Shown: positions 6,187 through 53,190, numbered from the stretch's first letter. The stretch is DNA of 64,000 nucleotides from Candidatus Magasanikiibacteriota bacterium (GCA_030650025.1 JAUSEN010000024.1:563-64562), one strand, 5' to 3'. Made by a program: numbers and translations. Notes: generated by a model not told the origin, from the letters alone.

Positions 6187-8742
6187 TTACAAACTCGCTT
6201 CGCTCAAGTCTACTTCTGATGCTTTAGTAGCCACTCCTAACTGCGCGCGCTCCATGATTTCGGCTTCTACGATTTCGCGCGGGCGGCCGTATTTGAGGCG
6301 CGAGAGTTCTTTAATGGCCGCGGCCAGCTCTTTGTTGCCGGCTTGCGGCGGGTAAGTCATCATATTAAACGGCTTGGCGGCCGTATTGTCAATAAGGAGC
6401 TTAACATAGGCGGTGTATTGCTCCACGTTGAGGAGGTCATACGCGCCAAACACCGGGGCATACTCTTTCTGGAGTACCTCGGCGTCCTCGGGGCCGATGC
6501 GGAAGGTAACAAGAGAGCCGGCGTTGCCCAAGACCGCGTCGCGCACCTGGGTTTTGCCTTTGTTGTCTTCCAGTTGTTTCATGTACTGGTGGGCGATGAT
6601 AAGTTCTAGGCGATATTTACGGGCTTCTGAAAGAATGGTCGCGATTGAGTCGGTAATAAAGTTTTGGAACTCGTCTATATACAAATAAAAATCACTACGT
6701 TCTTCTTCGGGGAGCGAAGCCCGTTCGAGAGCGGTCATTTGGAGTTTGCTCACAATAATCATGCCAAGCAAGTTGGCATTAATTTCGCCGACCAAGCCTT
6801 TGGCTAAATTAACGAGCAAGATTTTTTTCTTGTCCATGATTTCTCTAAAATTAAAACCCGAGTGGGTTTGGCCGATAATATTGCGCATCATGGCGTTTTC
6901 CACAAAGCGGCCGACTTTCGAAATCAAATAACCGAGCATTTCGGATTTATGGAAGTCGCTGGTTTTGGCCATTTCTTTGTCCCAAAATGCCAGCACCACC
7001 GGGTCTTGCAATTTCTTTTTCCATTTAGCGACAAACGAATCGTCGGTAAACATGCGCGGAATTTCGGCGATCGTCCCCGGGTTTTCCATGTCGGCCATCA
7101 GAGTAAGCATGACGTTCCTCATGTTATGTTCAAACATCGGCCCGATCATGGAAGGGTCGGTGACGAGTTTATAAAATATGGAGACCATTTCTTGAGTGAC
7201 AAAATCTTTTTGTTCCTCGGTTCTGGCTTCAAGCATATTGAGACCGATAGGGCGGTCCACATCGGACGGGTTGAAATAAATAACGTCGTCCACCCGTTCT
7301 TTGGGGATATGCTGTAAAACATATTCTACAAAATCGCCGTGCGGATCAACCACGCAGACTCCTTCGCCATTTTGGACATCTTGCACCGCCAAATTTTGAA
7401 TGAAGACAGATTTACCGGATCCGGATTTACCAATGGTATAGAGGTGGCGACGGCGGTCGGAGCGCGTCATACGGACGATGGTTTCTATGCCGCGGTAAAC
7501 AGTGCGCCCGAGAATAATACCTTCTTTTGGCATGTTAGTGGGCGGCGGTGCTTTGCGGGCAGTTAGCCAATTAATATGCGGAGTGTCAGTGCCCGGGATA
7601 GGCAAGTGCCAAAAACTGGCCATTTCTTCGGTATTAACGACTTGGTATTGGCTAGTGTCAAATAGGCGGTAGATAGAATCGGAGATGAGGCGGGCGGGGC
7701 GAGAAGGGACCGCGGCGCCAAAACTGTTGCCATAGCGATAGATATTGTATTGTGAAAAAGCGTTGAGAATATTTTCTAGGTTGAGCTGGGCTTTCTCTTT
7801 GCTCGGCGCCGAGCTAACCACGCGGAAGCAGATTTCGAGGCCGCCGTGGCTTAGTTTTTCTTCCATGGATTTGACCATTTCTTCTTCCATTTGGGTAAGA
7901 TGGTATTGCCCCGAGGCCGAATCCATTTGTGAAGGGTCTTTTTTGCTTTTTGACAACACTTTCCAAGTTTTATAAATTTCGCGCATGATCGCGCCGCGGC
8001 GCGCGACGTATTCAAATTTTTGGCCTTCTTTAATGTCTCTAATCATATGGACGCTTTGGCCGCGCCAATCGGAGGTGGCCGGGCGAACGACATATTGGAT
8101 TACCGCGCCCTCGTTATCCAAAATTTTACTTAAGGGGTTAAGCAAAGCCAAAATCGGGTCGCTATCAATTTTTTTATAGGTTTTGAACGGAAAAGCGGAT
8201 TTATATTTAAAAAAAAGTTTAGCCCCTACCACGTGCGATTGGGGTTCAAAAATATTATAATCAAGTTCTTCGGTAATTTCCGCGTGGGGGTATTGGGCGT
8301 GGATTTGCTGTTCGATAAAGCCTTTCAGCTTATCGGGAACAGCGACATAAAAAGAGATCGCGTTCTCTTTGGCCACGATTTCAAAGGCAAGATGGTCGCC
8401 CCGCCCGCGGAGCCACTTCATAAAGCCCTTTTCCCGTTTGAGGCCGGCGACAGCGCTAAAGAGAGTGTCGGCCACGGCCACGCGCTCGCGCACCTGATTT
8501 ATGTTGTCTTCGGTATTCTGCTGGGTGTTTTCGTTTTTCTTTTCTTTGGGCACTTTAATTAAGAGGACACCGCGATGAAAAGTTTTATTTTCCCGATTTT
8601 GGGAATGAAAAATTGAGCGTAGTAAATACAAGAGTCCGACTACGGCGAGAATAATTACGACCGCGAGAGTAATATAAAAATTAGTCGGGTTCTTGGTGAC
8701 CAAGGCGGCGAAGCTCGTGATGACAAAGGCGGTGTCGCTCAT
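6187..8742 (-). CDS. T4SS coupling-protein-like P-loop ATPase (VirD4/TraG/TrwB family) with an N-terminal transmembrane and extra domain
   Basis: The Walker A motif is IGKSGSGKS and is followed by VVDPHGD. A Walker B-like motif (LYIDEFQNF) and a C-terminal AHQYMKQL (Q..QL-like) motif are present. Confidence 0.6.
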   Translation of the reverse strand: MSDTAFVITSFAALVTKNPTNFYITLAVVIILAVVGLLYLLRSIFHSQNRENKTFHRGVLLIKVPKEKKNENTQQNTEDNINQVRERVAVADTLFSAVAGLKREKGFMKWLRGRGDHLAFEIVAKENAISFYVAVPDKLKGFIEQQIHAQYPHAEITEELDYNIFEPQSHVVGAKLFFKYKSAFPFKTYKKIDSDPILALLNPLSKILDNEGAVIQYVVRPATSDWRGQSVHMIRDIKEGQKFEYVARRGAIMREIYKTWKVLSKSKKDPSQMDSASGQYHLTQMEEEMVKSMEEKLSHGGLEICFRVVSSAPSKEKAQLNLENILNAFSQYNIYRYGNSFGAAVPSRPARLISDSIYRLFDTSQYQVVNTEEMASFWHLPIPGTDTPHINWLTARKAPPPTNMPKEGIILGRTVYRGIETIVRMTRSDRRRHLYTIGKSGSGKSVFIQNLAVQDVQNGEGVCVVDPHGDFVEYVLQHIPKERVDDVIYFNPSDVDRPIGLNMLEARTEEQKDFVTQEMVSIFYKLVTDPSMIGPMFEHNMRNVMLTLMADMENPGTIAEIPRMFTDDSFVAKWKKKLQDPVVLAFWDKEMAKTSDFHKSEMLGYLISKVGRFVENAMMRNIIGQTHSGFNFREIMDKKKILLVNLAKGLVGEINANLLGMIIVSKLQMTALERASLPEEERSDFYLYIDEFQNFITDSIATILSEARKYRLELIIAHQYMKQLEDNKGKTQVRDAVLGNAGSLVTFRIGPEDAEVLQKEYAPVFGAYDLLNVEQYTAYVKLLIDNTAAKPFNMMTYPPQAGNKELAAAIKELSRLKYGRPREIVEAEIMERAQLGVATKASEVDLSEASL

Positions 8743-12351: not shown

Positions 12352-13569
12352 GTGAGTTATCAACAGGGGGAGGAGCATAGCTATAGGCTGGTGGCTGATT
12401 TTTTGCTATACTATAGGTATATGCTGTTTGGTAAACCCCATTCATTTTTGGGTATTGATCTTGGCGCCGGGGGCGTAAAATTAGTAGAACTAAAAACCGA
12501 GAAACACCGACCGGTTCTTTTTACTTATGCCGTCACAACCGATGGCCAGGACGTGCATCGCTTGCTCCACGAGAGCGTGAACACTCCCGAAGAAGGGAAA
12601 AAACAAAACCAGGCCAAAGTCAAAGAGTACGCGGCGGTTTTAAAGGCGGTTTGCGCCCGCGCCAACGCCAAGTCCAAGAACGCGGTCGTGAGCTTGCCGG
12701 TGTCGTCGGTATTTCATGCTTTGGTAACTTTGCCAGCGGCCAAGAAAGAAGATTTCGATCATTTTTTAAAAGCAGAAGTAAAGAAACTCCTGCCCTACCC
12801 GCTCGAGGAAGCAGTCTTGGATTATCAAATTTTGCCCGGGGAGGAAAAAGCTACCACCAAGCGGGTTTTGGTGAACGCGGTGCCGCGTGATTTGGTGGTT
12901 TTTTATACCGAGGTGTTTGCCGAGGCTGGCCTTAAGCTCGAGGCGCTCGAGCCCGAGTCCGTGGCCTTGGCTCGGTCTTTAATCGGGCGCGACCAGTCTG
13001 TTACCATGCTGGTGGATGTGGGGGCGGAGCGCACTAATTTTTTTATTATTGATGGGGGTGTTCCTATCACGCACCACAGCACTGAAGTGGGCGGCAATCG
13101 TTTAACAGCGATTTTTAAAAATATTTGGCAAGTGGACAGCGCGGCCGCGGAAATTTTGAAGATGGATTTATTTACGGAATTAACGCGCGGCAGTAACCAT
13201 GCGGCTGTGTCCCCCGACCCGTCTGCCGTCCCGCTTCGCCCGCGAAGCGAGGCGAGCGAGGCAAGCCGATTTAAAGCGCTGACCCTGCCGGTGGTGGATC
13301 CGATTTTAAAGGAAATACAGTATGGTTTTGAGGTCTATTTAAAGCAGAGCGGCAACGAGCAGAAACGCCCAGAAAAGGTAGTTTTGACTGGCGGAGCGGC
13401 TTTTTTACCATACCTCTCCGAGCAAATAGCGGCCAATTTTAAGATTAAGTGCTTTATTGGCGACCCGTGGGGGCGGGTTCTTTACCAAGATAGGCTAAAA
13501 CCGATTCTGCGCGCGGTAGGGCCAAGGCTAGCGGTGGCTATTGGCCTAGCATTGCGCAGTATGGTATAA
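12352..13569 (+). CDS. pilM: Type IV pilus assembly ATPase-like protein PilM; carries an in-frame GC-rich hairpin insert
   Basis: It has the actin-like fold signature FLGIDLGAGGVKLVEL. The GC-rich insert encodes PDPSAVPLRPRSEASEAS. Confidence 0.8.
   Translation: MSYQQGEEHSYRLVADFLLYYRYMLFGKPHSFLGIDLGAGGVKLVELKTEKHRPVLFTYAVTTDGQDVHRLLHESVNTPEEGKKQNQAKVKEYAAVLKAVCARANAKSKNAVVSLPVSSVFHALVTLPAAKKEDFDHFLKAEVKKLLPYPLEEAVLDYQILPGEEKATTKRVLVNAVPRDLVVFYTEVFAEAGLKLEALEPESVALARSLIGRDQSVTMLVDVGAERTNFFIIDGGVPITHHSTEVGGNRLTAIFKNIWQVDSAAAEILKMDLFTELTRGSNHAAVSPDPSAVPLRPRSEASEASRFKALTLPVVDPILKEIQYGFEVYLKQSGNEQKRPEKVVLTGGAAFLPYLSEQIAANFKIKCFIGDPWGRVLYQDRLKPILRAVGPRLAVAIGLALRSMV
13232..13249. repeat. In-frame GC-rich palindrome cgcttcgcccgcgaagcg inside pilM
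   Basis: The palindrome is read from the sequence. It sits in a locally GC-rich segment of the coding sequence. Confidence 0.6.
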
Positions 13570-13642
13570 TAGTATCCAGGCGTGTTATAATATAAATTAA
13601 GCATAATCAGCAATAAAAGGGGGCTAAAATTAATTCAGAAAG

Positions 13643-13700
13643 CGCCGCGCTTCAGCGGATCCCGACTTAGTCGGGACGCGGCATGAATTTGTCAATTCAT
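13643..13700 (+). promoter_or_regulatory. Conserved leader element (copy 2), with an extra small hairpin (tcccgac-tta-gtcggga) inserted in its loop. Its ATG is the start of the response-regulator ORF
   Basis: The motif gcgccgcgcttcagcgga[...]cgcggcatgaatttgtcaattcat is the same as at 9373-9420. Confidence 0.4.
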
Positions 13701-14081
13701 ATGGAAAAAAATAAAATAAATATTTTACTAGTTGAAGACGATATTTTTTTGGCCGGAATTTACCAGAAGAAGTTTGAAATGGAAGCCTATAAAATAGTGG
13801 TGGCGGATAACGGCGAGAAGGCGCTCGTAGAAGCCAAAAAGAAAAAATTTGATATAATTTTGCTTGACATTTTGCTCCCTAAATTAGATGGGTTCGCGGT
13901 CTTAGAGAAACTTAAAGCTGACCCGGAGACTAAACCGATCCCGGTAATTTTGTTGACGAATTTAGGCCAAAAAGATGACGTGGACAAGGGTTTGCAAGCC
14001 GGCGCCGTGGATTATTTGATTAAGGCGCATTTTAAACCATCGGAAGTGGTGGATAAAGTGCGGGCGGTTTTGAAAATTTAA
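13683..14081 (+). CDS. Response-regulator receiver domain protein (CheY-like, stand-alone)
   Basis: LLVEDD, DIILLDILLPKLDG and a conserved Lys region are present. Confidence 0.8.
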   Translation: MNLSIHMEKNKINILLVEDDIFLAGIYQKKFEMEAYKIVVADNGEKALVEAKKKKFDIILLDILLPKLDGFAVLEKLKADPETKPIPVILLTNLGQKDDVDKGLQAGAVDYLIKAHFKPSEVVDKVRAVLKI

Positions 14082-14126
14082 GCCGCGTCGGTCATTTTTG
14101 AAAAGTATCATTTTTATAATGAATCT

Positions 14127-14564
14127 TTGGAAGGAGGTGACACTATGAATAAAAAAGGCTTTACTTTAATTGAACTTTTGGTTGTTATCGCTATTATTGG
14201 CTTATTGTCCACTTTGGCGGTAGTAGCGCTCGGTAGCGCCCGCGTTAAAGCGCGCGATTCCAAGCGTTTAAGCGATCTTAAACAGCTCCAGACAGCATTC
14301 GAACTTTATTACACCGATCAGAACGCTTATCCAGCGGGAAGCGGCGTCACTTTGGGTTCAGGAGACTATGCTTGTCTGAACGCGACTGGCTTCGCGGCCA
14401 CTGGCTGTGCCACCCCTTATATGGGCCAAGTTCCTAAAGATCCAAAAGACTTCACTTACGTATATACTTTAGCCTCCAGCACCTATAGTGTGGCGGCGGA
14501 GCTTGAGGGTACGGTAAACGGTTTGACTGGCGTGATTTCTTTGTCTCCGGCTGGAATTAAATAA
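14127..14564 (+). CDS. Type IV pilin (prepilin with an N-terminal methylation motif)
   Basis: [19 protein letters not shown] is the class III signal peptide. Confidence 0.85.
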
Positions 14565-14672
14565 TTGATAAGCAATTACAAAAAAATCTCCCCCTCGATA
14601 TTTACTCCGGGAGATTTTTTGTTTACTTAAAATAGTTTTTTTGCTATAATATATGCGATTTTTAGTATTTTT

Positions 14673-15503
14673 ATGGCGTTTGACAGCCTACAACTAGCAG
14701 TATATTTGCTTATTAGTTTACTCGGACTTTGTTTTGGCAGTTTTGTGAATTCTTGGATGTGGCGAGTAAAAAATACACGCGAAAAGATTGGGAGGCGCAG
14801 TGTTTGTGTGCATTGCGGCGAGAAAATTATTTGGTACGACAATATTCCGTTATTTGGTTTTTTGCGGTTGCGTGGGCTTAGCCGGTGCTGCCGCCGACCG
14901 ATTCCGCAAGATTATTTTTGGGTGGAGCTCGCGGGAGGGTTCTTGTTTTTATTAGTCGCTCTTTATCATCTCAACTTAGTTATTTTTAATCCCGTTTTTT
15001 TTGCTCGGGATTTATTTTTTATTTGTATTCTGTTGGTAATCTTTTTATATGACGCCAAGTATCAGTTAATTTTAACTGGAGTAGTGGCGGCCGGGGGGTT
15101 GGGCGGTTTTATTTTTAATTTGTTCACCGCGCGGCCATTTACTACTTATATTTTGCTTTTTAATCATAATGCCGCGGCGATTGCCAGCAATCTGGCGCTC
15201 GGAGCCATAGTCGGGTGGGGTTGGTTTGCTTTCCAATATTATGCCTCGCGCGGTAAATGGGTGGGCGGCGGCGACGTGCGCCTCGGCGCTATGCTCGGCC
15301 TCTGGCTCGGCTGGCCGCTTATTCTGGTTTGTTTATTTTTTTCCTATATTCTTGGTGCTCTGGTGGCAGTGCCGTTGTTAATACTCAAGAAAAAGCAGTT
15401 TGGTTCGGCTCTGCCGTTTGGGACTTTTTTAGCAGTCGGGGCAGTGATCACGATTTTTTATGGCCAGCCAATTTTCAATTGGTATTTGAGGTTTTTAGGG
15501 TAA
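14673..15503 (+). CDS. pilD: Prepilin peptidase (A24 family)
   Basis: An N-terminal CxxC...CxxC zinc module, multiple transmembrane helices and the conserved GGGD-containing region are present. Confidence 0.8.
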   Translation: MAFDSLQLAVYLLISLLGLCFGSFVNSWMWRVKNTREKIGRRSVCVHCGEKIIWYDNIPLFGFLRLRGLSRCCRRPIPQDYFWVELAGGFLFLLVALYHLNLVIFNPVFFARDLFFICILLVIFLYDAKYQLILTGVVAAGGLGGFIFNLFTARPFTTYILLFNHNAAAIASNLALGAIVGWGWFAFQYYASRGKWVGGGDVRLGAMLGLWLGWPLILVCLFFSYILGALVAVPLLILKKKQFGSALPFGTFLAVGAVITIFYGQPIFNWYLRFLG

Positions 15504-29223: not shown

Positions 29224-29363
29224 AAAATTTACGTGCCTCTCGATTCGTCGCTGCGCTCCTCACTCGAGGCACTCGCCTCGGCAACTGTTAAATTTGGTCG
29301 CAGGTTTTTTCCGAAGAAAAAACCGAAGACCACGAGCGAGGCCATTCGCATGGCCGAGTCGAG

Positions 29364-29762
29364 TGGAAGTGATGGGAGTTGAACCCATGTCTAGCAGTCA
29401 GTACCTTTGCCGTCTACATACGTAGTTTTCTTAAGATACGGGTATGCGGTGATAAGAAAACGAAATCCGCACACGAGAATCGGCCAACAGTTCGGTGGCG
29501 CTCGGGCCGGTGGCAAGCTTCACCTACGCTTCGTGAGTGACACCGTGCTACCCCTACGAAGTCTTGGGGCGACGATGGCAAATGGCCCTTAGGCCATTGC
29601 GGGCGCGAAGCTAAAGCCGCTAAACAAGTTAGCGATCTTGTTGCTTACGCGAGCAAGTAAGTTGTTAGCACTTATTGCGTTTCCTCCCGTGATTAACGAG
29701 GATAGGAGGACTCCTCGGTATGCGGAACAATGATACTGCCACTGTCGAAACCCGGCACTCCC
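29364..29762 (-). ncRNA. ssrA: tmRNA (SsrA)
   Basis: The 5' end reads GGGAGUGCCGGGUUUCGAC. The 3' end has a tRNA-like T-arm GGGUUCAACUCCC and an acceptor with a G3:U70 pair. An internal tag-like reading frame encodes (A)NLFSGFSFAPAMA followed by a stop. The gene is adjacent to smpB. Confidence 0.7.
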
Positions 29763-36800: not shown

Positions 36801-37850
36801 ATGAAGATCATGGCCGAGAACTGGAAGCACGCGGCGATCGCACTCGCCGCTCTGTTCACCTTGTTCGCGGGTGCGACCGCGAACGCCGAAGACGGCGACC
36901 AGTCCGTTTTCTACGCGGCTGCCACGCCTCCGCTCCCCGCGCCGGCTCCGACCACGATCGCCGTTCCGCTCACGGAGGCGGAGAGGGCCACCCTGGCCGA
37001 GTGCCGGCAGATCGAGGCCAAGCGGCCTGCCCGGCCGCGCAAGGCTCTGAAGTCGGCGCCCAAGATGAGCGACGACTGTCGGAAAATCTGGGCGGCGGCC
37101 CAGAAGGCCTTCGGGAATGGGCGCTTTGGCGAGGCGCTCCGACTCTTCCACAAGGGCATGGAAGAGTGCGGCCAGCCGGCCTGGCGTTTCAACGCCGGCG
37201 CGACCCACAAGGCGCTCACGCGCTACGTGGGGTGCAATCCGCAGAACATCGCGGAAGCGCGGCGGGAGGTCGCGGAGTACATCGCCGCGGCCACGGAGGA
37301 CGAACAAACGCGGAGGCTCCTGCGGGAGATTGACGCGTTCGAGAAGTCCTGCCAGGCAGCTGACGCGGAGCCGCCTGAACGGAAGCCGGCGCCGGTGGCC
37401 GACGCCCAGCCTACTGGGAGCGGCCCGCCGCCCGCCTGCCCGCCCACGCAGGTCGTCTGCCCGACGGTGCCCCCGTGCCCGTCGTGCCCGAACTGCGAGC
37501 TCACCTGCCCGCCCATGCAGGTGAACTGCCCCACCGGCGCGTTGCCCACCGCGCCGCCTCCGCCGGCTCCTTCCCAGGAGCCGCAACCGCCCCCCCTGCC
37601 CCCGGTGCAGGAGCGCCGGGTCGTCCCTCTGCCCGAGTCGGACGACCCCCCGCCCGTCCCGGCTAGGAGGGCCAAGCCCCCCTGCCAGAAATGCCCGCCG
37701 CCTGGACCTTTCCAGGACGGCGACAGCATCGTCGGCAAGGCCAGGGGCTTTGAGCGCGCGGGGCGCGCGCTCAAAGAGAAGTGGGACGCGCGGGCAACGC
37801 GTCTCGAAACCAAAGCGGCGGCGGCCGAGGCGGCCGCCGCCCAGCCGTAA
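36801..37850 (+). CDS. Secreted Pro/Cys-rich protein encoded by a roughly 70% GC ORF (GC-rich cassette 1)
   Basis: A ribosome-binding site (gaggagga) precedes the ORF. A signal peptide (MKIMAENWKHAAIALAALFTLFAGATANA) and CPxxP/PPCP-type motifs are present. The ORF ends at the shared 3' stem-loop element. Confidence 0.5.
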   Translation: MKIMAENWKHAAIALAALFTLFAGATANAEDGDQSVFYAAATPPLPAPAPTTIAVPLTEAERATLAECRQIEAKRPARPRKALKSAPKMSDDCRKIWAAAQKAFGNGRFGEALRLFHKGMEECGQPAWRFNAGATHKALTRYVGCNPQNIAEARREVAEYIAAATEDEQTRRLLREIDAFEKSCQAADAEPPERKPAPVADAQPTGSGPPPACPPTQVVCPTVPPCPSCPNCELTCPPMQVNCPTGALPTAPPPPAPSQEPQPPPLPPVQERRVVPLPESDDPPPVPARRAKPPCQKCPPPGPFQDGDSIVGKARGFERAGRALKEKWDARATRLETKAAAAEAAAAQP

Positions 37851-37937: not shown

Positions 37938-37990
37938 GGGGACGAGAATGAGAATTTTCAGGACTAGCAAAACTCGTCTCCTCCCCAATT
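37938..37990 (+). repeat. Conserved 3' stem-loop element (ggggacgagaatgagaattttcaggactagcaaaactcgtctcctccccaattgt), copy 1
   Basis: It is nearly identical to 39842-39893, and a partial match lies at 42410-42445. Confidence 0.6.
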
Positions 37991-38209
37991 GTTCTCGGGT
38001 TTTATAAACGTGAGAATTGAAGGGATTTATAACAATTTGATCTTTGAAAAAATTAAAAACAAAAAAGAACTCCCTTGCGGGAGTTCCGAGATTCAGAGCA
38101 GCTTTGCTACGACTAAGATTATCAACAAATGAATGATAACATCACTGTAATGTTATGTCAAATAATTTATCCACAAAAACAAAAGCCCCGAATTTATCAG
38201 GGCTTTAGA

Positions 38210-38295
38210 TGGTGGACGGAGGGGGGATCGAACCCCAGGAACTAAGTTGATAATCCTAGACGCGGCGCCAGCCGCTCTCCGCCCTCAAATCCACC
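38210..38295 (-). ncRNA. tRNA-like small RNA gene A, with its own promoter
   Basis: The fold has acceptor GGGCGGA/TCCGTCC with a G3:U70 pair, D-arm GCGG/CCGC, T-loop TTCGATC, discriminator A and an encoded CCA. The anticodon arm is irregular (8-nt loop AUUAUCAA). A TTGCAT-N17-TAAAAT promoter lies about 14 nt upstream of the mature end, and a hairpin plus T-run lies downstream. Confidence 0.35.
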
Positions 38296-38606
38296 ATGAA
38301 GGATTTTATCATAGTGCTCTTTAAAATGCAACTTTATAAGTATTTATTTATGTGGATAAACGACCATAGGCATCTTGACAAACTAGAGAATTTGTGCTAT
38401 ACTTATTTGTTAGATTAAAAAACAGGTTTTTTAGTCTAATTATAGAGAAATTCTGGCAAAGTTGCTAAGATTAGCAGTTTTGCCAGGGTTTTTACCAAAA
38501 TGCCCTCAAATCAACTGTTCTTTACAACCATGAACCACCCCGCACCACAAGGGTGCAGGGTAAAAAATGGTTCATGGCAAGCAATAGTGTCCCAACATAA
38601 ACACCA

Positions 38607-38660
38607 GTCCTACCGGGAACAAAGATTTGTAATCATACAATTCTTTTTCCCCGGTAGGAC
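38607..38660 (+). promoter_or_regulatory. Conserved leader hairpin (gtcctaccggg...AT-rich loop...cccggtaggac), followed by a ribosome-binding site; copy 1
   Basis: The same stem and downstream tcacgccgagttctccgaaagggatcctcaaggaggatg are found at 40549-40676. Confidence 0.55.
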
Positions 38661-38702
38661 TCACGCCGAGTTCTCCGAAAGGGATCCTCAAGGAGGATGA
38701 AC

Positions 38703-39758
38703 ATGACCATGACCCGTAGTTTCGAGGGTTTCGGCACGGCGGCCATGTTGGCCGCGACCCTGCTCGTGGGGACCTTCACGAGCACCGCGCACGCCGACGC
38801 CTTCATCGCGACCAGCGCGATCGACGAGTGCTGCGGCAACCGGAACCCCGGCGCGGAGAGCATGGTCTGCACGCAGACCGTCAAGACGGCCTGCTGCACC
38901 GGCAACGCTCTGACGCCGATGCCGGACGGTTCTCTCCCCGCGGCCTGCAACACCGCGGTGAAGCAGGTCCTCGTGGCTGCCCGTCGCGAGATCGACGCCA
39001 AGACCCCGGGCGCCACTGTCCCGGCCGCCACCCCCGCCCCCTCGGGCAGGGTGAACGGATTCGACGACGAGATGGACGTCGCCGTCGATTCCGAGGCACG
39101 GAGCAAGGCCGCCCGGGCCGAGCGGATCGCGGCTCGCGCTCGCGAGGACGCGGGCGGGGCCAAGGCCTTCGCCCGTCGCTCGGCCAGGGCCGCCGAGCAC
39201 GCCGCCGACGACGCCCAGCTCGCGGCCGAGAACGCCGAAGCCGCCGCCAGCGCCGCCCGCGAGGGTGACGAGTGCGACGACTGCGGACGCTCGCGGCAGG
39301 TCGCAGCGAACCAGGACGCCATCACCCGCGCTCTGCGCGCGGCCGGGGGGTACGACATCCTCCCGGGGACCGTGAACGTGGTCCGTGGCGGCGGCGCCGA
39401 GCAGCGCACCGAGTCGCCCCCGACGCTCGCCTTCACCGGTTTCGGTGCGGGCAACGGCGACGGCGCACCGAACGGGGAGCTCCCGGGACGGCTCGGGGCC
39501 GTCCGGCTCCGGATCGTGGATTCCAACGGAATTCGCAACCTGGAGACGGGCCCCGCGGCCCTGCTCGTGCCCGGGTCGGCCGACCTGCTCAAGCCCATCG
39601 GCCGCTCGTGGTGCGCCAGGAACACGGGGGCCTGCGTGGCCCTGTCCATCCTGGTTCCCATCATCGCCACCAGCGCGGCGATCACCATCGGGGTGGTCGG
39701 AGACCAGCAGGGCTGGTTCCGGGGTCCGGACCAGAACATCACTCTGGTCGTCCGGTAG
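38703..39758 (+). CDS. Secreted protein of unknown function encoded by a roughly 70% GC ORF (GC-rich cassette 2)
   Basis: Its N-terminus (MTMTRSFEGFGTAAMLAATLLVGTFTS) is shared with the 40677 ORF. It has an Ala/Arg-rich central region. The ORF ends at the shared 3' stem-loop. Confidence 0.5.
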   Translation: MTMTRSFEGFGTAAMLAATLLVGTFTSTAHADAFIATSAIDECCGNRNPGAESMVCTQTVKTACCTGNALTPMPDGSLPAACNTAVKQVLVAARREIDAKTPGATVPAATPAPSGRVNGFDDEMDVAVDSEARSKAARAERIAARAREDAGGAKAFARRSARAAEHAADDAQLAAENAEAAASAAREGDECDDCGRSRQVAANQDAITRALRAAGGYDILPGTVNVVRGGGAEQRTESPPTLAFTGFGAGNGDGAPNGELPGRLGAVRLRIVDSNGIRNLETGPAALLVPGSADLLKPIGRSWCARNTGACVALSILVPIIATSAAITIGVVGDQQGWFRGPDQNITLVVR

Positions 39759-39841
39759 CGGGGGTCGCGCGTTCGAGCGCGGCCAGGCAAAAAGGCTCCG
39801 TGTGCATGGGCGGCACACGGAGCCATCGAACAAAGCAGAAA

Positions 39842-39893
39842 GGGGACGAGAATGAGAATTTTCAGGACTAGCAAAACTCGTCTCCTCCCCAAT
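39842..39893 (+). repeat. Conserved 3' stem-loop element, copy 2
   Basis: It matches 37938-37990. Confidence 0.6.
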
Positions 39894-40042
39894 TGTCTTG
39901 CTCTTAAGTAGTTAAGGGCGGGACTGAAGGGAATCAAGTTCTTTTAAAATAAAAACCCCGCACCACAAGGGTGCAGGGCAAGAAAAATAATTTAAATTAA
40001 AATCCCCTCTAGTAATTTTAGAGAGGATTTCAGGTGGTGGAC

Positions 40043-40119
40043 GGAGGGGGATTCGAACCCCGAAACTGGGATAGCAAGCCCGGCTGTAGCGCCAGCTACT
40101 CTCCGCCCTCAAATCCACC
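40043..40119 (-). ncRNA. tRNA-like small RNA gene B, with its own promoter
   Basis: The acceptor and T-arm match those of gene A, and the D-arm is GTAG/CTAC. The anticodon region GCUUGCU (GCU anticodon) lacks a well-paired stem. A TTGCAT-N17-TAAACT promoter is present, and a CCA is encoded. Confidence 0.3.
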
Positions 40120-40548
40120 GGGGTCTAGTTTATCAGATTGCTCTTTAAAATGCAACTATAAAGTTACATGTGAGTGTCAGACAAAAAAAGAACTCCCTTG
40201 CGGGAGTCCCGAGATTCAGAGTAGCGTTTTTAGCGCCAACTAGACTTGCTATCCATAACTAAGGATACCAAGTAGCGAAAATATCGTCAAGTAGTTGTCC
40301 ACAGGACATTAACATAAAAATCCCTTTTGTTAAGGGATTCATATGTTGACACACAGAGTAAAACCAGAGTTAATATCTGGCACACTGTACAAATTAAGAA
40401 TAACAGCTTGAGAAAAAATTGTCAACCACTTATCCATTTTTTTAAGTTCACGAGGCGCCGAATGTGTTAATTTGGCCTGTCGTGAGCCTTAAAAAGCTCG
40501 TTAGTTCTTTACAACTTAAACGGTTTGACTATATAAAGTAATAAAATT

Positions 40549-40635
40549 GTCCTACCGGGAACAAAGCCTTGTATATAATAATATTATATATATTTTATAT
40601 ATTATTTAAATACAATTCTTTTTCCCCGGTAGGAC
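40549..40635 (+). promoter_or_regulatory. Conserved leader hairpin, copy 2 (with a longer AT-rich loop)
   Basis: The same stem (gtcctaccggg / cccggtaggac) and downstream ribosome-binding-site block as at 38607-38696. Confidence 0.55.
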
Positions 40636-40676
40636 TCACGCCGAGTTCTCCGAAAGGGATCCTCAAGGAGGATGAT

Positions 40677-42314
40677 ATGACCAAGACCCGCATCGAGGGT
40701 TTCGGCAAGGCGGCCGCGTTGGCCGCAACCCTGCTCGTGGGGACCTTCACGAGCAACGGCTGCGGGAACGGACCGGTCAACCTCACCGTCGTCTACCAGG
40801 ATGACGGCGGCGCGATCCCGACCCCCAGCCCGGACCTCGCCCAGGCCCCGGCCGACCTCGCGGTCGCGCCGGACCTGACGCCCACGCCGGATCTCGCCCA
40901 GGCCCCCGTCGCCGACCTCGCGGTCGCGCCGGATCTGGCCCAGGCGCCCGACCTCACCCCGCAGTGCCCGCAGGGCCTCACCCTGTGCGGCAACCGCTGC
41001 GTCGACCTGACCGTCGACAACGCGAACTGCGGCCGGTGCGGCCAGGCGTGCGCGAATGGCGCCGAGACCTGCTCCAACGGGAAGTGCGTCTCGGCGTGTC
41101 CGCAGAACACGACGTACTGCTGGCAGAACAACGCCGGCTGCACGAACGTGCTCACCGATTCCGCGAACTGCGGGATGTGCGGCAAGGTGTGCCCCCCGGG
41201 GAACACCTGCGCGCGCGGCCAGTGCGCAGTCGACCAGAACCTCAACTGCGGGCAGAAGATCGCCTGCGGCAAGGACTGCATCGACATCGCCAACGACCCG
41301 GTGAACTGCGGCGGCTGTGGCAAGGCCTGCTCGGCCATCAACATCGATGGCAACCCGACGTGCACCGGGAAGGTGTGCACGGGTCAGTGCCGTCCCAATT
41401 TCGGGGACTGCGACAGCAACAAGCTGACCAACGGCTGCGAGACCAACCTCATGACCTCCGTGGGCAACTGCGGCGGCTGCGGGGTCGAGGTCCCGCAGAA
41501 TCTCCCGAACACGAGTTCGTCCATCTGCCAGCTCGGCGCGTTCACCCCGGTCTGCAAGCCCGACTTCGGGGACTGCAACGTGTGGTGGCGCGACGGGTGC
41601 GAGATCAACTTTCTCGCGGACGACAACAACTGCGGCCAGTGCGGCAACTGGTGCGCGTGGGGCGAAGTCTGCCTCCAGGGCGTCTGCAAGGAGCCCCCTT
41701 GCCCGATGAACCAGACCAGGTGCTTCGGCGCCTGCAAGGACCTCTCGGCTGACCCCCAGTACTGCGGCGCTTGCAATCAGGCGTGCAAGCAGGGTGAGAC
41801 CTGCAAGCAGGGGCAGTGCATCGCCCCCCCGCAGCCCGACCTCGGCGGCAACAACGTCGACATGGCGTCGCCGCCGGACCTCGGTACCCCCCAGGGCGAC
41901 CTGGCCCAGGCCGCCAGGTACGAATTGAAGGTCTCGGACCCGAAGCCGGGGACGAACGTCGAGGTGTGGTTGACCTCGAACGCGATGGGGGCGCTCCACA
42001 GCTTTGCCCCCAGCACCTTCAGCCTCTCGGCCGCCGACATCTGCGGCCACATGGTCCGGGGGCAGGTCAGCCCGGGCCTTGAGGGGTGGGTTCGGGACTA
42101 CACCGGGGATCCGGCTGGGAACAGCTGGATCGGCTGCCCGCCCAACCCGCGGGCGGTCACCGAGCTCACGTACGAGTTCGGCCCGGTGGGGATGATGAAG
42201 AAGCCGGTGCCGGCCAAGGGTGTCGGGCAGGTCGACGCCTGCAACGGCATGGGCATGCCGAACTTCTTCATCACCCAGGCCGATCTGGCGGCCGCGGGCC
42301 TGGTCTGCCCGTAG
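40677..42314 (+). CDS. Secreted or lipoprotein-like protein with PDLAQAP repeats and Myxococcus-type cysteine-rich (CGxCG...C) repeats, encoded by a roughly 70% GC ORF (GC-rich cassette 3)
   Basis: The N-terminus MTKTRIEGFGKAAALAATLLVGTFTSNGC is followed by more than ten NCGxCGxxC-type repeats and a C-terminal non-repeat domain. Confidence 0.55.
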   Translation: MTKTRIEGFGKAAALAATLLVGTFTSNGCGNGPVNLTVVYQDDGGAIPTPSPDLAQAPADLAVAPDLTPTPDLAQAPVADLAVAPDLAQAPDLTPQCPQGLTLCGNRCVDLTVDNANCGRCGQACANGAETCSNGKCVSACPQNTTYCWQNNAGCTNVLTDSANCGMCGKVCPPGNTCARGQCAVDQNLNCGQKIACGKDCIDIANDPVNCGGCGKACSAINIDGNPTCTGKVCTGQCRPNFGDCDSNKLTNGCETNLMTSVGNCGGCGVEVPQNLPNTSSSICQLGAFTPVCKPDFGDCNVWWRDGCEINFLADDNNCGQCGNWCAWGEVCLQGVCKEPPCPMNQTRCFGACKDLSADPQYCGACNQACKQGETCKQGQCIAPPQPDLGGNNVDMASPPDLGTPQGDLAQAARYELKVSDPKPGTNVEVWLTSNAMGALHSFAPSTFSLSAADICGHMVRGQVSPGLEGWVRDYTGDPAGNSWIGCPPNPRAVTELTYEFGPVGMMKKPVPAKGVGQVDACNGMGMPNFFITQADLAAAGLVCP

Positions 42315-52506: not shown

Positions 52507-53190
52507 TTAGTTAAAAATTAGTTTAAGTTCAGTTATGTCGATCTTCCATTTCGTTTTGTCCCACCATTGTAGCCCTTCAAATTGCAACTTATATTTATCA
52601 GTCGGGCGGGAAAAACTGCCGAGGTAAACATATTTTTTTCCGGCTTCTTTGGCCCATAAAATTGCTTTTAGCATCATGCCGAGGCCCAGATTTGGTATTT
52701 TTGTTTTCAGATTATAAAAGGGGTAACAGTAGTGGAGGAGTTCGTTGGTTTGCAGGCAGATGGCGTAGCCAACGGCCGATTGTAGGGGCGAACGGCCTTT
52801 CGCCCCTACGCCAGAATCGTCTAATGTATATACCAAAACGCAATTAAAATTGCTTTTATTTTTGTCAGTCAGCAATTCTTTAATTTTATTAGCAGAAAAC
52901 ACTGAACCAAATTTAGTATCATAAAAATCTTTACCAAGTTTGCCAATGTTAAAATGGTAATCGGCGTAGGGGAGAGGGCATGCCTCAAGCTTCACGTCTT
53001 CGGTTTTTTTAAGCACGCGACGGTTTTCGCTGGAGAGCACGAATTTAGATAGATCAATGCGCAGACTCCTGGTTTGATACATCTCGCCCTTGCCCGTGCG
53101 GCCGAACAAATAACCCTGGTGGTACAGGGAGTTGATGTTCTGGTCAGAGAAATCCGTGATGGTTTTTTCGTCCCATTTGAGATAAGCCAT
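52507..53190 (-). CDS. Arginyl/leucyl-tRNA--protein transferase-like protein (ATE_C/Bpt family); carries an in-frame palindromic insert
   Basis: KYVYLGSFSRPTDKYKLQFEGLQWWD resembles the ATE_C YLGYY...KM.YK..F.P.E motif. The insert encodes GVGAKGRSPL. Confidence 0.4.
   Translation of the reverse strand: MAYLKWDEKTITDFSDQNINSLYHQGYLFGRTGKGEMYQTRSLRIDLSKFVLSSENRRVLKKTEDVKLEACPLPYADYHFNIGKLGKDFYDTKFGSVFSANKIKELLTDKNKSNFNCVLVYTLDDSGVGAKGRSPLQSAVGYAICLQTNELLHYCYPFYNLKTKIPNLGLGMMLKAILWAKEAGKKYVYLGSFSRPTDKYKLQFEGLQWWDKTKWKIDITELKLIFN
52782..52809. repeat. In-frame palindrome gtaggggcgaacggcctttcgcccctac inside the bpt-like gene
   Basis: A 28-bp palindrome. Confidence 0.8.

Follow-up and report, generated by a model that had tools for sequence, protein, structure and literature searches.

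In the hok/sok and IS10 RNA-IN/RNA-OUT systems, the single-stranded 5' tail of one RNA nucleates on a hairpin loop of its partner, and pairing spreads from there. In type VIII toxin-antitoxin (TA) systems (e.g., CreT-CreA and SdsR-RyeA), both partners are RNAs, and CreT targets the translation apparatus, in that it sequesters a tRNA. Allo-tRNAs, which occur in Acidobacteria, Clostridia, and Deltaproteobacteria, have an acceptor/T branch divided 8+4, odd anticodons, and, in some cases, a G3·U70 pair with alanine inserted (PMC5389517; PMC7609411); they have been reported near TA loci, and some irregular ones are lethal when expressed (PMC5389517). Here, we describe a module that shares traits with each of these systems, composed of a tRNA-like RNA (tl) and an antisense small RNA (sRNA). 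Two copies (tl1 with sRNA-a and tl2 with sRNA-b) were found in a 64,000-nt stretch of DNA (GCA_030650025.1 JAUSEN010000024.1:563-64562; here called the window), a chromosomal segment of about 45% GC from a metagenome-assembled genome (MAG) of Candidatus Magasanikbacteria, within the Candidate Phyla Radiation (CPR; Patescibacteria).

The module resembles hok/sok in its tail-to-loop geometry, in combining a strong promoter for the antagonist with a weaker one for the target, in a 5'-3' fold-back like hok fbi, and in its multiple orthogonal copies. As in type I TA systems, the antisense sRNA is specific for its target, as judged from duplex energies, loop complements, and covariation. Unlike hok, tl encodes no peptide and is tRNA shaped, and the two genes do not overlap but are trans-encoded in tandem on the same strand. 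A type I peptide toxin was rejected: tl contains no start codon, ribosome-binding site, or conserved open reading frame (ORF), and the ORFs that overlap it are conserved in neither frame nor length. The anatomy also fits that of type VIII systems, with toxicity of tl presumed by analogy; CreA, however, acts via Cascade on the creT promoter and not by pairing with a tRNA-like fold, and the module has no clustered regularly interspaced short palindromic repeat (CRISPR) context. ColE1 RNA I and RNA II likewise combine a tRNA-like cloverleaf, loop-mediated antisense pairing, and a DnaA box near the origin, but they are overlapping cis-antisense origin transcripts that lack an acceptor/T minihelix, an identity set, and CCA, and no replicon is evident in the window.

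With allo-tRNAs, tl shares a 12-bp branch split 8/4, but it occurs in CPR bacteria, lacks their long variable arm (of the serine or selenocysteine tRNA type), and possesses an 8-nt loop, a helix between its leader and CCA, and a dedicated, coevolving antisense sRNA. An 8-nt anticodon loop is also found in yeast mitochondrial tRNA-Thr(UAG) (PMC7609411), and the frameshift suppressors SufB2 and sufA6 are reported to carry one extra loop nucleotide while keeping a U33-like base and a purine-37-like base (PMC7803779). Whereas those tRNAs arose as laboratory mutants or belong to organelles and use a fixed anticodon for decoding, the tl loop varies freely and covaries with an antisense RNA. Bacillus cereus tRNA-Other (PMC5389517) and mascRNA (PMC8457004) are likewise stand-alone RNAs that are reported to be charged or processed by tRNA enzymes, with leader-trailer pairing influencing the processing of mascRNA (PMC8457004). 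Unlike tl, they are not known to have an 8-nt loop or an antisense RNA of their own, and their sequences are unrelated.

Fold and conservation of the tRNA-like RNAs

The original prediction, which was made from the window sequence, had placed two tRNA-like genes on the minus strand, and ARAGORN reported "tRNA-???" at exactly those positions, with four-base anticodons in tl1 (tatc; 38210 to 38284) and tl2 (tgct; 40035 to 40108), which imply an 8-nt loop in both. Normal tRNA-Gln and tRNA-Asp genes and one transfer-messenger RNA (tmRNA) were also returned for the window. Neither tl1 nor tl2 reached the gathering score of the Rfam tRNA model (RF00005), and the best weak matches within the Rfam clan (E ≤ 10) were to tRNA-Sec, with 27 and 24 bits, respectively, versus a threshold of 47. 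No covariance model thus made a normal tRNA of either copy, which is the result by which the original prediction would have been refuted.

Ordinary tRNA, tRNA-Sec, and tmRNA were rejected on the basis of the Rfam gathering cutoffs, the scans at E ≤ 10, and ARAGORN. The GG of the D loop and the T-loop elbow are those of a canonical tRNA, but the 8+4 branch, the 8-nt loop, and the subthreshold score are not; tRNA-Sec is contradicted by a branch of 12 rather than 13 bp, a short variable region, the lack of a UCA loop, and its own subthreshold score; and a tmRNA by a length of 75 nt without an ORF. The tmRNA of this genome lies at 29361 to 29762 on the minus strand; it is of the one-piece type (103.7 bits in Rfam) and has an unusually long predicted tag (ANNLLARVSNKIANLFSGFSFAPAMA). 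A T-box riboswitch was also rejected: there was no Rfam hit, and the sRNA, whose antisense region spans about 35 nt of the 5' half of tl, ends in its own terminator, followed by a separate promoter.

Relatives were collected with an exact-pattern scan of one genome per species and then with a looser metagenome scan, and a covariance model (R1) was built from the first 22 sequences. The exact-pattern scan yielded about 20 close relatives, all in Patescibacteria MAGs labeled by their depositors as Magasanikbacteria, Paceibacter, Gottesmanbacteria, or Peribacteria, plus several otherwise labeled. The covariance model brought the family to at least 36 members, from genomes as well as metagenomes of Patescibacteria/CPR, and these form the alignment used here. 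The model assigned 94 bits to tl1 and 84 bits to tl2 (E values of about 1e-21 and 1e-18), far above chance, and it also returned two "armless" minis (see below) and, weakly and as an outlier, the window tRNA-Gln. Among the 20 related loci, a single copy (L028) reached 35.9 bits in RF00005. The distribution over several CPR lineages is patchy, and a genome may carry two or more copies that are orthogonal to each other. No model for tl or for its partner sRNA exists in Rfam 15, and full-text literature searches, whose coverage limits this negative, revealed no description of such a pair; on these two grounds we regard the module as a two-RNA system of a new kind. The comparisons thus point to a conserved and apparently undescribed structured-RNA pair in CPR bacteria.

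Compensatory changes support the fold. All five pairs of the D stem and all six of the anticodon-like stem show double compensatory changes in the alignment, and 94% of the cells in paired columns can pair, compared with 54 to 63% when the 3' partner column was slid by one to three positions. Nucleotide 8 (G) pairs with C in every one of the 36 members; the base preceding the T stem is U, C, or A (a gap in one member), and a fifth T-stem pair (49:65) is never possible. The acceptor pairing of the original prediction (GGGCGGA/UCCGUCC) therefore stands, but its length is 8 bp and not 7 bp, and the T stem has 4 bp. Other details given there, namely the G3·U70 pair, a good D stem, a UUCGA T loop, the discriminator A73, CCA, and a leader of about 12 nt upstream of both elements, are readable in the sequence. 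The T arms of tl1 and tl2, said to be identical, have identical stems but differ at two loop positions (UUCGAUC versus UUCGAAU). The anticodon arms are noncanonical, as had been stated, and one had been correctly given an 8-nt loop; the other, in tl2, does not lack a paired stem, and minimum free energy (MFE) folding recovered the anticodon-like stem-loop of both copies.

This loop is 8 nt long in 35 of the 36 members, with the consensus N-U-U-R-N-C-A-N, and takes 24 different sequences. A U33-like U and an A37-like A are kept, whereas the "anticodon" varies freely among orthologues and paralogues (UAUC, UACC, UGUC, UGCC, UGCU, UGAC, and others). The D loop contains GG in 34 members, the variable region is 4 to 5 nt long, CCA is encoded in 33 members, and the T loop is UUCGAWY or UUCAAYU in all, the T arm having been partly fixed by the search pattern. 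As the 36 members share G3·U70 without exception and show compensation in each helix that varies, tl1 and tl2 are, on comparative evidence, not the degenerate tRNAs that had been suggested.

Three acceptor classes occur (GGGCGGAG/CUCCGUCC, GGGGCGAG/CUCGCUCC, and GGGGUGAG/CUCACUCC), in which pairs 4:69 and 5:68 swap with compensation (C-G/G-C and G-C/C-G/U-A). G1-C72, G2-C71, G3·U70, and A73, which make up the alanine identity set, are fixed in the family, except for A1 in one decayed copy (L033); the metagenome search pattern had left positions 68 to 70 free. A related genome (L015) has a genuine tRNA-Ala(UGC) that agrees with tl in its first four pairs and in A73. CCA is encoded in the window tRNA-Gln and is not encoded in the window tRNA-Asp or in this tRNA-Ala. 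Alanyl-tRNA synthetase (AlaRS) recognizes G3·U70 together with A73 and disregards the anticodon. Moreover, 8/4 tRNAs with G3·U70 insert alanine in Escherichia coli (PMC5389517). Given the identity set of tl, these recognition rules, and the 8/4 precedent, charging of tl by AlaRS is plausible by analogy.

The encoded CCA reported by the original prediction is present but doubles as one strand of a leader-trailer helix (P0). In every member tested, a 5- to 8-nt leader segment, usually GGUGG and with a 4- to 6-nt spacer after it, pairs with C74-C75-A76 and the next bases, and compensatory cases were found in L030 (GUCGCUGG/CCAGCGAC), L021 (UUUUUGG/CCAAAAG), and L005 (GGCGG/CCGUC). Another register, overlapping the acceptor end, is favored by RNAfold for the window copies; it was rejected, as the compensation in these three members supports pairing with positions 74 to 78.

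Two copies are decayed. In L041 (about 1480 to 1580), the sRNA promoter and anti-loop tail are joined straight to the variable region and T arm of tl through an internal deletion, and L033 (5590 to 5665) has G-to-A changes at acceptor positions 1 and 4. A phage or plasmid origin of the family was rejected: scans of IMG/VR found no family member, and blastn found no match in INPHARED phages or PLSDB plasmids. An unrelated-looking "armless" tRNA-like RNA of about 60 nt occurs in two IMG/VR phage contigs (L152 and L157) and in two metagenome sequences (L061 and L096). Its parts are a G3·U70-bearing acceptor (GGGGCGAG/CUCGCUCC), a single hairpin, a T arm, and ACCA; an anticodon arm is missing, and its acceptor/T minihelix is the same as that of class-B family members. 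It is transcribed from a TTGACA/TATAAT promoter of its own and, in phage genomes, lies within a row of small transcripts that likewise have promoters.

The cognate antisense RNA and its promoters

A partner gene encoding an sRNA of about 65 nt lies next to almost every tl gene, and 34 such sRNAs were recovered. The original prediction, which had listed a regulatory RNA among its options, was pointing in the right direction but had overlooked the antisense gene beside each copy. The exact complement of the 8-nt loop is found within ±400 nt of 28 of the 36 members, and a 7/8 match within that distance of 7 more, compared with a chance of about 0.01 per locus (our own estimate, not the output of a tool). 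It usually lies 97 to 168 nt upstream on the same strand; for tl1 (+159) and L031 (+183) it lies downstream, and this reversed gene order argues for action in trans. The anti-loop is located at, or 1 to 3 nt from, the transcription start of the sRNA. Past this tail, the sRNA matches, as an imperfect reverse complement, tl nucleotides ~4 to 38 (i.e., the 5' strand of the anticodon stem, the D arm, and nucleotides 4 to 8 of the acceptor 5' strand), and its 3' domain is conserved in sequence beyond the needs of a terminator. A leaderless mini-ORF in the sRNA was rejected, the frames having been read by eye: the tail often begins with AUG, GUG, or UUG, but neither the length nor the sequence of the frames is conserved.

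Loop and tail change together. In 32 distinct modules, nucleotides 1 to 14 of the sRNA pair with the tl loop and stem at 92.4% of positions, compared with 74.9 ± 1.5% (maximum, 79.6%) in 2,000 partner shuffles, and every variable loop position covaries with the sRNA. Nearest-neighbor energy predictions agree: cognate duplexes average -46.4 kcal/mol and noncognate ones -29.5 kcal/mol, and the cognate tl is the best partner for 19 of 21 sRNAs. The two pairs in the window are mutually orthogonal, with predicted values of -45.0 kcal/mol for sRNA-a with tl1 (-26.9 with tl2) and -47.3 kcal/mol for sRNA-b with tl2 (-31.5 with tl1). By these comparisons, the module is made up of two independent RNA genes whose products are a coevolving and orthogonal pair.

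The sRNA genes have a promoter of the TTGACA-N17-TATAAT type and a conserved terminator (GAACUCCC-GNRA-GGGAGUUC followed by a U run). The tl genes have their own terminator and, in all relatives, an extended -10 element (TGnTATAMT) about 7 nt before the leader. The TTGCAT-N17-TAAA(A/C)T promoters assigned to tl1 and tl2 by the original prediction are present, but their -35 elements are weak, and they are better described as extended -10 (TGn) promoters, which fail a sigma-70 consensus scan. A perfect DnaA box (TTATCCACA, in either orientation) is located 4 to 6 nt upstream of the sRNA -35 element in 15 of 34 modules; if one mismatch is tolerated, 20 of 34 have a box at this position. Of the perfect boxes in the 297 kb examined, half are among these 15. 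On this basis, synthesis of the sRNA is probably tied to DnaA, whether by activation or by repression.

Genomic setting of the two modules

Coordinates of the RNA genes, their promoters, and the adjacent genes are given in Table 1. Both modules lie inside the only GC-rich island of the window, where they alternate with three plus-strand genes (cassettes 1 to 3), and the whole is ringed by housekeeping genes (DnaX, CysRS, LigA, PPDK, IF3, and Mur enzymes).

Table 1. Features of the two modules and of the neighboring cassettes (window coordinates)
Feature	Position	Strand	Remarks
tl1, tRNA-like RNA	38210-38284	minus	G1 = 38284; terminal A of ACCA = 38210; from ARAGORN, MFE fold, covariance model, and covariation
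tl1 acceptor, 8 bp		minus	GGGCGGAG/CUCCGUCC with G3·U70
tl1 D arm and anticodon-like stem		minus	GCGGC-UGGC-GCCGC; CUAGG/CUUAG
tl1 anticodon-like loop, 8 nt	38247-38254	minus	AUUAUCAA; exact complement of sRNA-a nt 2-9
tl1 T arm and 3' end		minus	GGGG-UUCGAUC-CCCC; A73-CCA
tl1 5' leader, ~12 nt	38285-38296	minus	GGUGG (38291-38295), P0 5' strand, then spacer AUUUGA
tl1 P0 3' strand	38208-38212	minus	CCAUC (C74 C75 A76 + 2 nt)
tl1 promoter	38303-38331	minus	TTGCAT 38326-38331, 17-nt spacer, TG-extended TAAAAT 38303-38308; below consensus scan threshold
tl1 intrinsic terminator	38182-38206	minus	
Second perfect DnaA box	38351-38359	minus	TTATCCACA; ~20 nt upstream of tl1 -35
sRNA-a, cognate to tl1	38061-38126	minus	Tail UUGAUAAU (38118-38125) = anti-loop
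sRNA-a, continuation		minus	Hairpin antisense to tl1 D arm, linker CUCUGAAUCUC, terminator hairpin 38066-38087 + U run
sRNA-a promoter	38133-38161	minus	TTGACA-17-TATCAT, 11/12 consensus positions, TG-extended
Perfect DnaA box	38167-38175	minus	TGTGGATAA; 5 nt upstream of sRNA-a -35
tl2, tRNA-like RNA	40035-40108	minus	G1 = 40108; acceptor and T stems same as tl1
tl2 D arm		minus	GUAGC-UGGC-GCUAC; two compensatory changes versus tl1
tl2 anticodon-like stem		minus	GCCGGG/CCCAGU; one C·A mismatch
tl2 loop, 8 nt	40071-40078	minus	CUUGCUAU; exact complement of AUAGCAAG in sRNA-b
tl2 leader	40109-40120	minus	GGUGG (40115-40119), P0 5' strand; partner CCACC 40033-40037
tl2 promoter	40127-40155	minus	TTGCAT 40150-40155, 17-nt spacer, TG-extended TAAACT 40127-40132
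tl2 downstream terminator hairpins (two)	39955-40032	minus	39998-40032 and 39955-39979
sRNA-b, cognate to tl2	40183-40254	minus	Anti-loop AUAGCAAG 40245-40252; terminator hairpin 40189-40210
sRNA-b promoter	40262-40290	minus	TTGACG-17-TATCCT
DnaA-box-like motif, 8/9	40295-40303	minus	TGTGGACAA; 4 nt upstream of sRNA-b -35
Cassette genes 1, 2, 3	36801-37850, 38697-39758, 40674-42314	plus	~70% GC; GC at third codon positions 0.87-0.94; secreted proteins

The cassette ORFs, all three of which are intact, match exactly the NCBI proteins with locus tags Q7K39_04190, 04195, and 04200; these are consecutive, which shows that the annotation of the depositors is gene-free between the cassettes. A frameshift-dependent reading of the cassettes was accordingly rejected. 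Cassettes 2 and 3 share an identical 66-nt 5' untranslated region (38635 to 38700 and 40610 to 40675) and a signal-peptide region that is 92% identical, and a 55-nt 3' element (37938 to 37992 and 39842 to 39896) is the same in cassettes 1 and 2. In homologue searches, proteins 1 and 2 were orphans; protein 3 is a Stig1/MXAN_6577-like Cys-rich protein whose relatives are mostly from Myxococcales/Polyangiales. Among 1,248 cassette codons there is no AUA, GUA, ACA, or UCA, and NNA codons make up 2.5%, versus 20.7% in host genes. A CCCCAATTGT 3' element is associated with the cassettes.

Between 37900 and 40450, the terminator scan found ten terminator-like hairpins on the minus strand and none on the plus strand, so that transcription of the cassettes may continue, in antisense orientation, across the sRNA and tl genes and into the next cassette. 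Cassette 2 has a strong plus-strand promoter (38375 to 38403). Upstream of sRNA-b on the minus strand (40318 to 40425), a TTGACA-17-TATTCT promoter (40425 to 40397) is followed by hairpins at 40381 to 40363 and 40340 to 40318, which may represent a further tiny transcript.

The original prediction had drawn attention to the position of the tl genes amid cassettes. This link is real, as about a quarter of modules abut GC-rich cassettes for secreted proteins (in addition to the window, in L016, L021 [two modules], L022, L029, and L031), but most members lie among housekeeping genes with no cassette nearby. The products of island genes in the other genomes are Cys-rich-repeat, collagen-like, or unannotated proteins, and module and cassette genes invariably occupy opposite strands. 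Islands downstream of the module, with a start 150 to 200 nt away, occur in the window (two), L016, L021 (two), L029, and L031, and L022 has one that starts upstream; the islands begin beyond the tl gene and its terminator and not within the gene. An all-against-all BLASTP comparison of ORFs from the 20 related loci linked no protein family to the module, apparent clusters being spurious ORFs that overlap the RNA genes, and a conserved protein partner was thus rejected.

Other observations concern the borders and surroundings of the island. The second tl2 terminator hairpin (CCCUGCACCC..GGUGCGGGG; 39955 to 39985) recurs at 38537 to 38567 and as the tl terminator of L028. The motif GTAAAGAACA lies just past the tl terminator in the window (about 38510 to 38530), L016, L021, and L028, bordering GC-rich islands, and the hairpin and the motif may mark a junction. 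Elsewhere in the window are genes for a VirD4/TraG-type coupling protein and for type IV pili (PilM and prepilin peptidase), at 6187 to 8742 on the minus strand and 12352 to 15503 on the plus strand; these belong to the uptake and attachment machinery typical of CPR bacteria and could bear on the arrival of the foreign-looking cassettes. A gene at 52507 to 53190 (minus strand) encodes a 227-aa protein that is a distant relative of arginyl-tRNA-protein transferases, with an ATE_C match (E value of 6e-6) and matches to NCBIfam arginyltransferase models (E value of 8e-12) that are below the cutoff. Its neighbors are a Glycos_transf_4 protein (MraY type), a Mur ligase, MurB, and an ATP-grasp protein with weak Ddl-like matches, and its product may be an aminoacyl-tRNA-dependent cell wall transferase.

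Possible function of the module

The reading that we favor, tentatively and with somewhat less than even confidence, is that the module would act as an RNA-only switch of the TA or addiction type, nearest in logic to type I and type VIII systems. We lean toward it because of the closed antagonism between two genes, the strong promoter of the antagonist, and the hok-like 5'-3' lock, and because of the several orthogonal copies per genome, the patchy distribution, the decayed copies, and the foreign-looking cassette neighbors. TA cassettes sit in integron arrays, and a TA-like role would explain why copies of the module sit between horizontally acquired cassettes. Under such a scheme, abundant sRNA would dock its single-stranded 5' tail on the 8-nt loop of tl, by the route of Sok/hok and RNA-IN/RNA-OUT, and zip along the 5' half, probably while tl is still nascent and its 3' half has yet to be transcribed. 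The cloverleaf and acceptor stem would then never form, and tl would be neither processed nor charged. Upon a drop in sRNA synthesis, for which DnaA status or a general transcription shut-off would be the likely input, new tl would fold, RNase P would cut at G1 and free the CCA from the leader helix, and AlaRS would charge the RNA. Alanyl-tl with its 8-nt loop might finally enter ribosomes and cause +1 frameshifting or misinsertion of alanine, by which growth would be slowed or stopped.

A more specific version of this scheme appears doubtful to us. In it, tl would be an alanyl-tRNA mimic with a universal identity, a toxin chargeable by any AlaRS via G3·U70, whose 8-nt loop would corrupt decoding at A-ending codons or quadruplets and which the DnaA-controlled sRNA would keep unfolded; the cassettes, lacking AUA, GUA, ACA, and UCA, would be immune to such a decoder and spared upon release.

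Several points weigh against a TA-like switch. Everything beyond the pairing of the two RNAs is read from anatomy, and addiction depends above all on the stability of both RNAs. Most of the T arm, along with part of the acceptor, was prescribed by the exact-match searches, and conservation there is partly by construction. The conserved leader-CCA helix could keep the 3' end from ever being free, in which case tl would not be aminoacylated. The predicted gain of the heteroduplex over the folded monomers is modest (-5 and -12 kcal/mol), and invasion of mature tl by the sRNA may be inefficient; together with the targeting of the 5' half, this modest gain suggests a cotranscriptional trap acting on the nascent transcript. 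The roles could also be reversed, with tl as the sponge and the sRNA serving some other function, and a DnaA-controlled promoter suggests a physiological, cell-cycle-linked regulator rather than a purely selfish module.

The last point leads to an explanation that we consider unlikely but deserving of serious weight, namely, that the module is a physiological riboregulator and not a toxin, i.e., a DnaA-coupled switch in which tl is the sponge or antagonist of the sRNA or the reverse, tuning a process such as translation capacity or, by cis-antisense, the convergent GC-rich cassette genes. The DnaA boxes at sRNA promoters, the conserved sRNA 3' domain, the invariably opposite strand of the cassette genes, and the read-through made possible by the lack of plus-strand terminators between cassettes are all consistent with it. 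Nevertheless, because the sRNA seed changes with tl in each genome (24 loops in 36 members), an external target would have to covary too; most modules are free of cassettes, and the alanine identity set and CCA, strictly conserved as they are, would go unexplained. That identity set would be accounted for if tl were an alanine donor for a nonribosomal transferase of the Fem/MurM type that builds cell wall cross-bridges, the loop barring decoding and the sRNA setting the level, and the ATE_C-fold protein within the peptidoglycan cluster of the window would be a candidate enzyme. We regard this as quite improbable, as its gene is 12 kb away and none like it is linked to the module in the 20 related loci, an 8-nt loop does not stop EF-Tu binding, and a housekeeping donor would call for neither several orthogonal, fast-coevolving antisense partners in one genome nor so patchy a distribution.

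Attachment sites were a further proposal of the original prediction, in which the tl genes would be landmarks by which a recombinase captures GC-rich cassettes. Islands do start 150 to 200 nt downstream of the module in several loci (upstream in L022), and GTAAAGAACA recurs after the tl terminator in four loci, but we see little prospect for this role. The integrase or recombinase that it calls for did not appear in Pfam and NCBIfam scans of the window ORFs or of the island ORFs of other genomes; no partial or duplicated tl 3' end lies at the far island border, only the two full copies matching even with three mismatches allowed; the junctions fall outside the gene; and the island-free majority, the antisense partner, and the covariation would have no explanation. 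It is very improbable that tl is a genuine recoding tRNA, decoding quadruplets or +1 frameshifts in particular genes under control of the sRNA. Although its U33-like and A37-like positions are as in classical frameshift suppressors (PMC7803779) and 8/4 tRNAs can act in translation, the "anticodon" is not constant among orthologues or paralogues, neighboring cassette ORFs need no frameshift, and there is no conserved partner gene. As for decaying tRNA pseudogenes or a chance resemblance, the failure of the Rfam tRNA model and the lack of an amino acid assignment by ARAGORN would fit, but an RNA with 36 members, compensation in all variable helices, its own promoters and terminators, and a covarying partner makes this next to inconceivable; covariation refutes it.

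Even without a role as a toxin, tl and its partner (36 tl RNAs and 34 sRNAs) constitute a new structured-RNA pair with strong intra- and intermolecular covariation and no Rfam model. In practical terms, the family offers natural orthogonal RNA-RNA pairs, as well as natural 8/4 scaffolds with 8-nt loops for genetic-code engineering. To our knowledge, almost no regulatory RNAs have been described for CPR bacteria, in which cultivation is rare. If a TA-like switch is the correct reading, the module would add an RNA-only class to TA and growth-control biology in the CPR, and it would be the first case of a tRNA-shaped, aminoacylatable RNA serving as the regulated effector of a two-RNA system, with specificity residing in the loop and the antisense tail. 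If tl is moreover the proposed alanyl-tRNA mimic, its release would shut off bulk translation and spare the secreted cassette proteins, amounting to a tRNA-based reprogramming switch in an episymbiotic CPR bacterium. The switch would also tie translation fidelity to DnaA (i.e., to replication status) and possibly to the expression or stabilization of GC-rich cassettes, including one for a myxobacterial-type protein.

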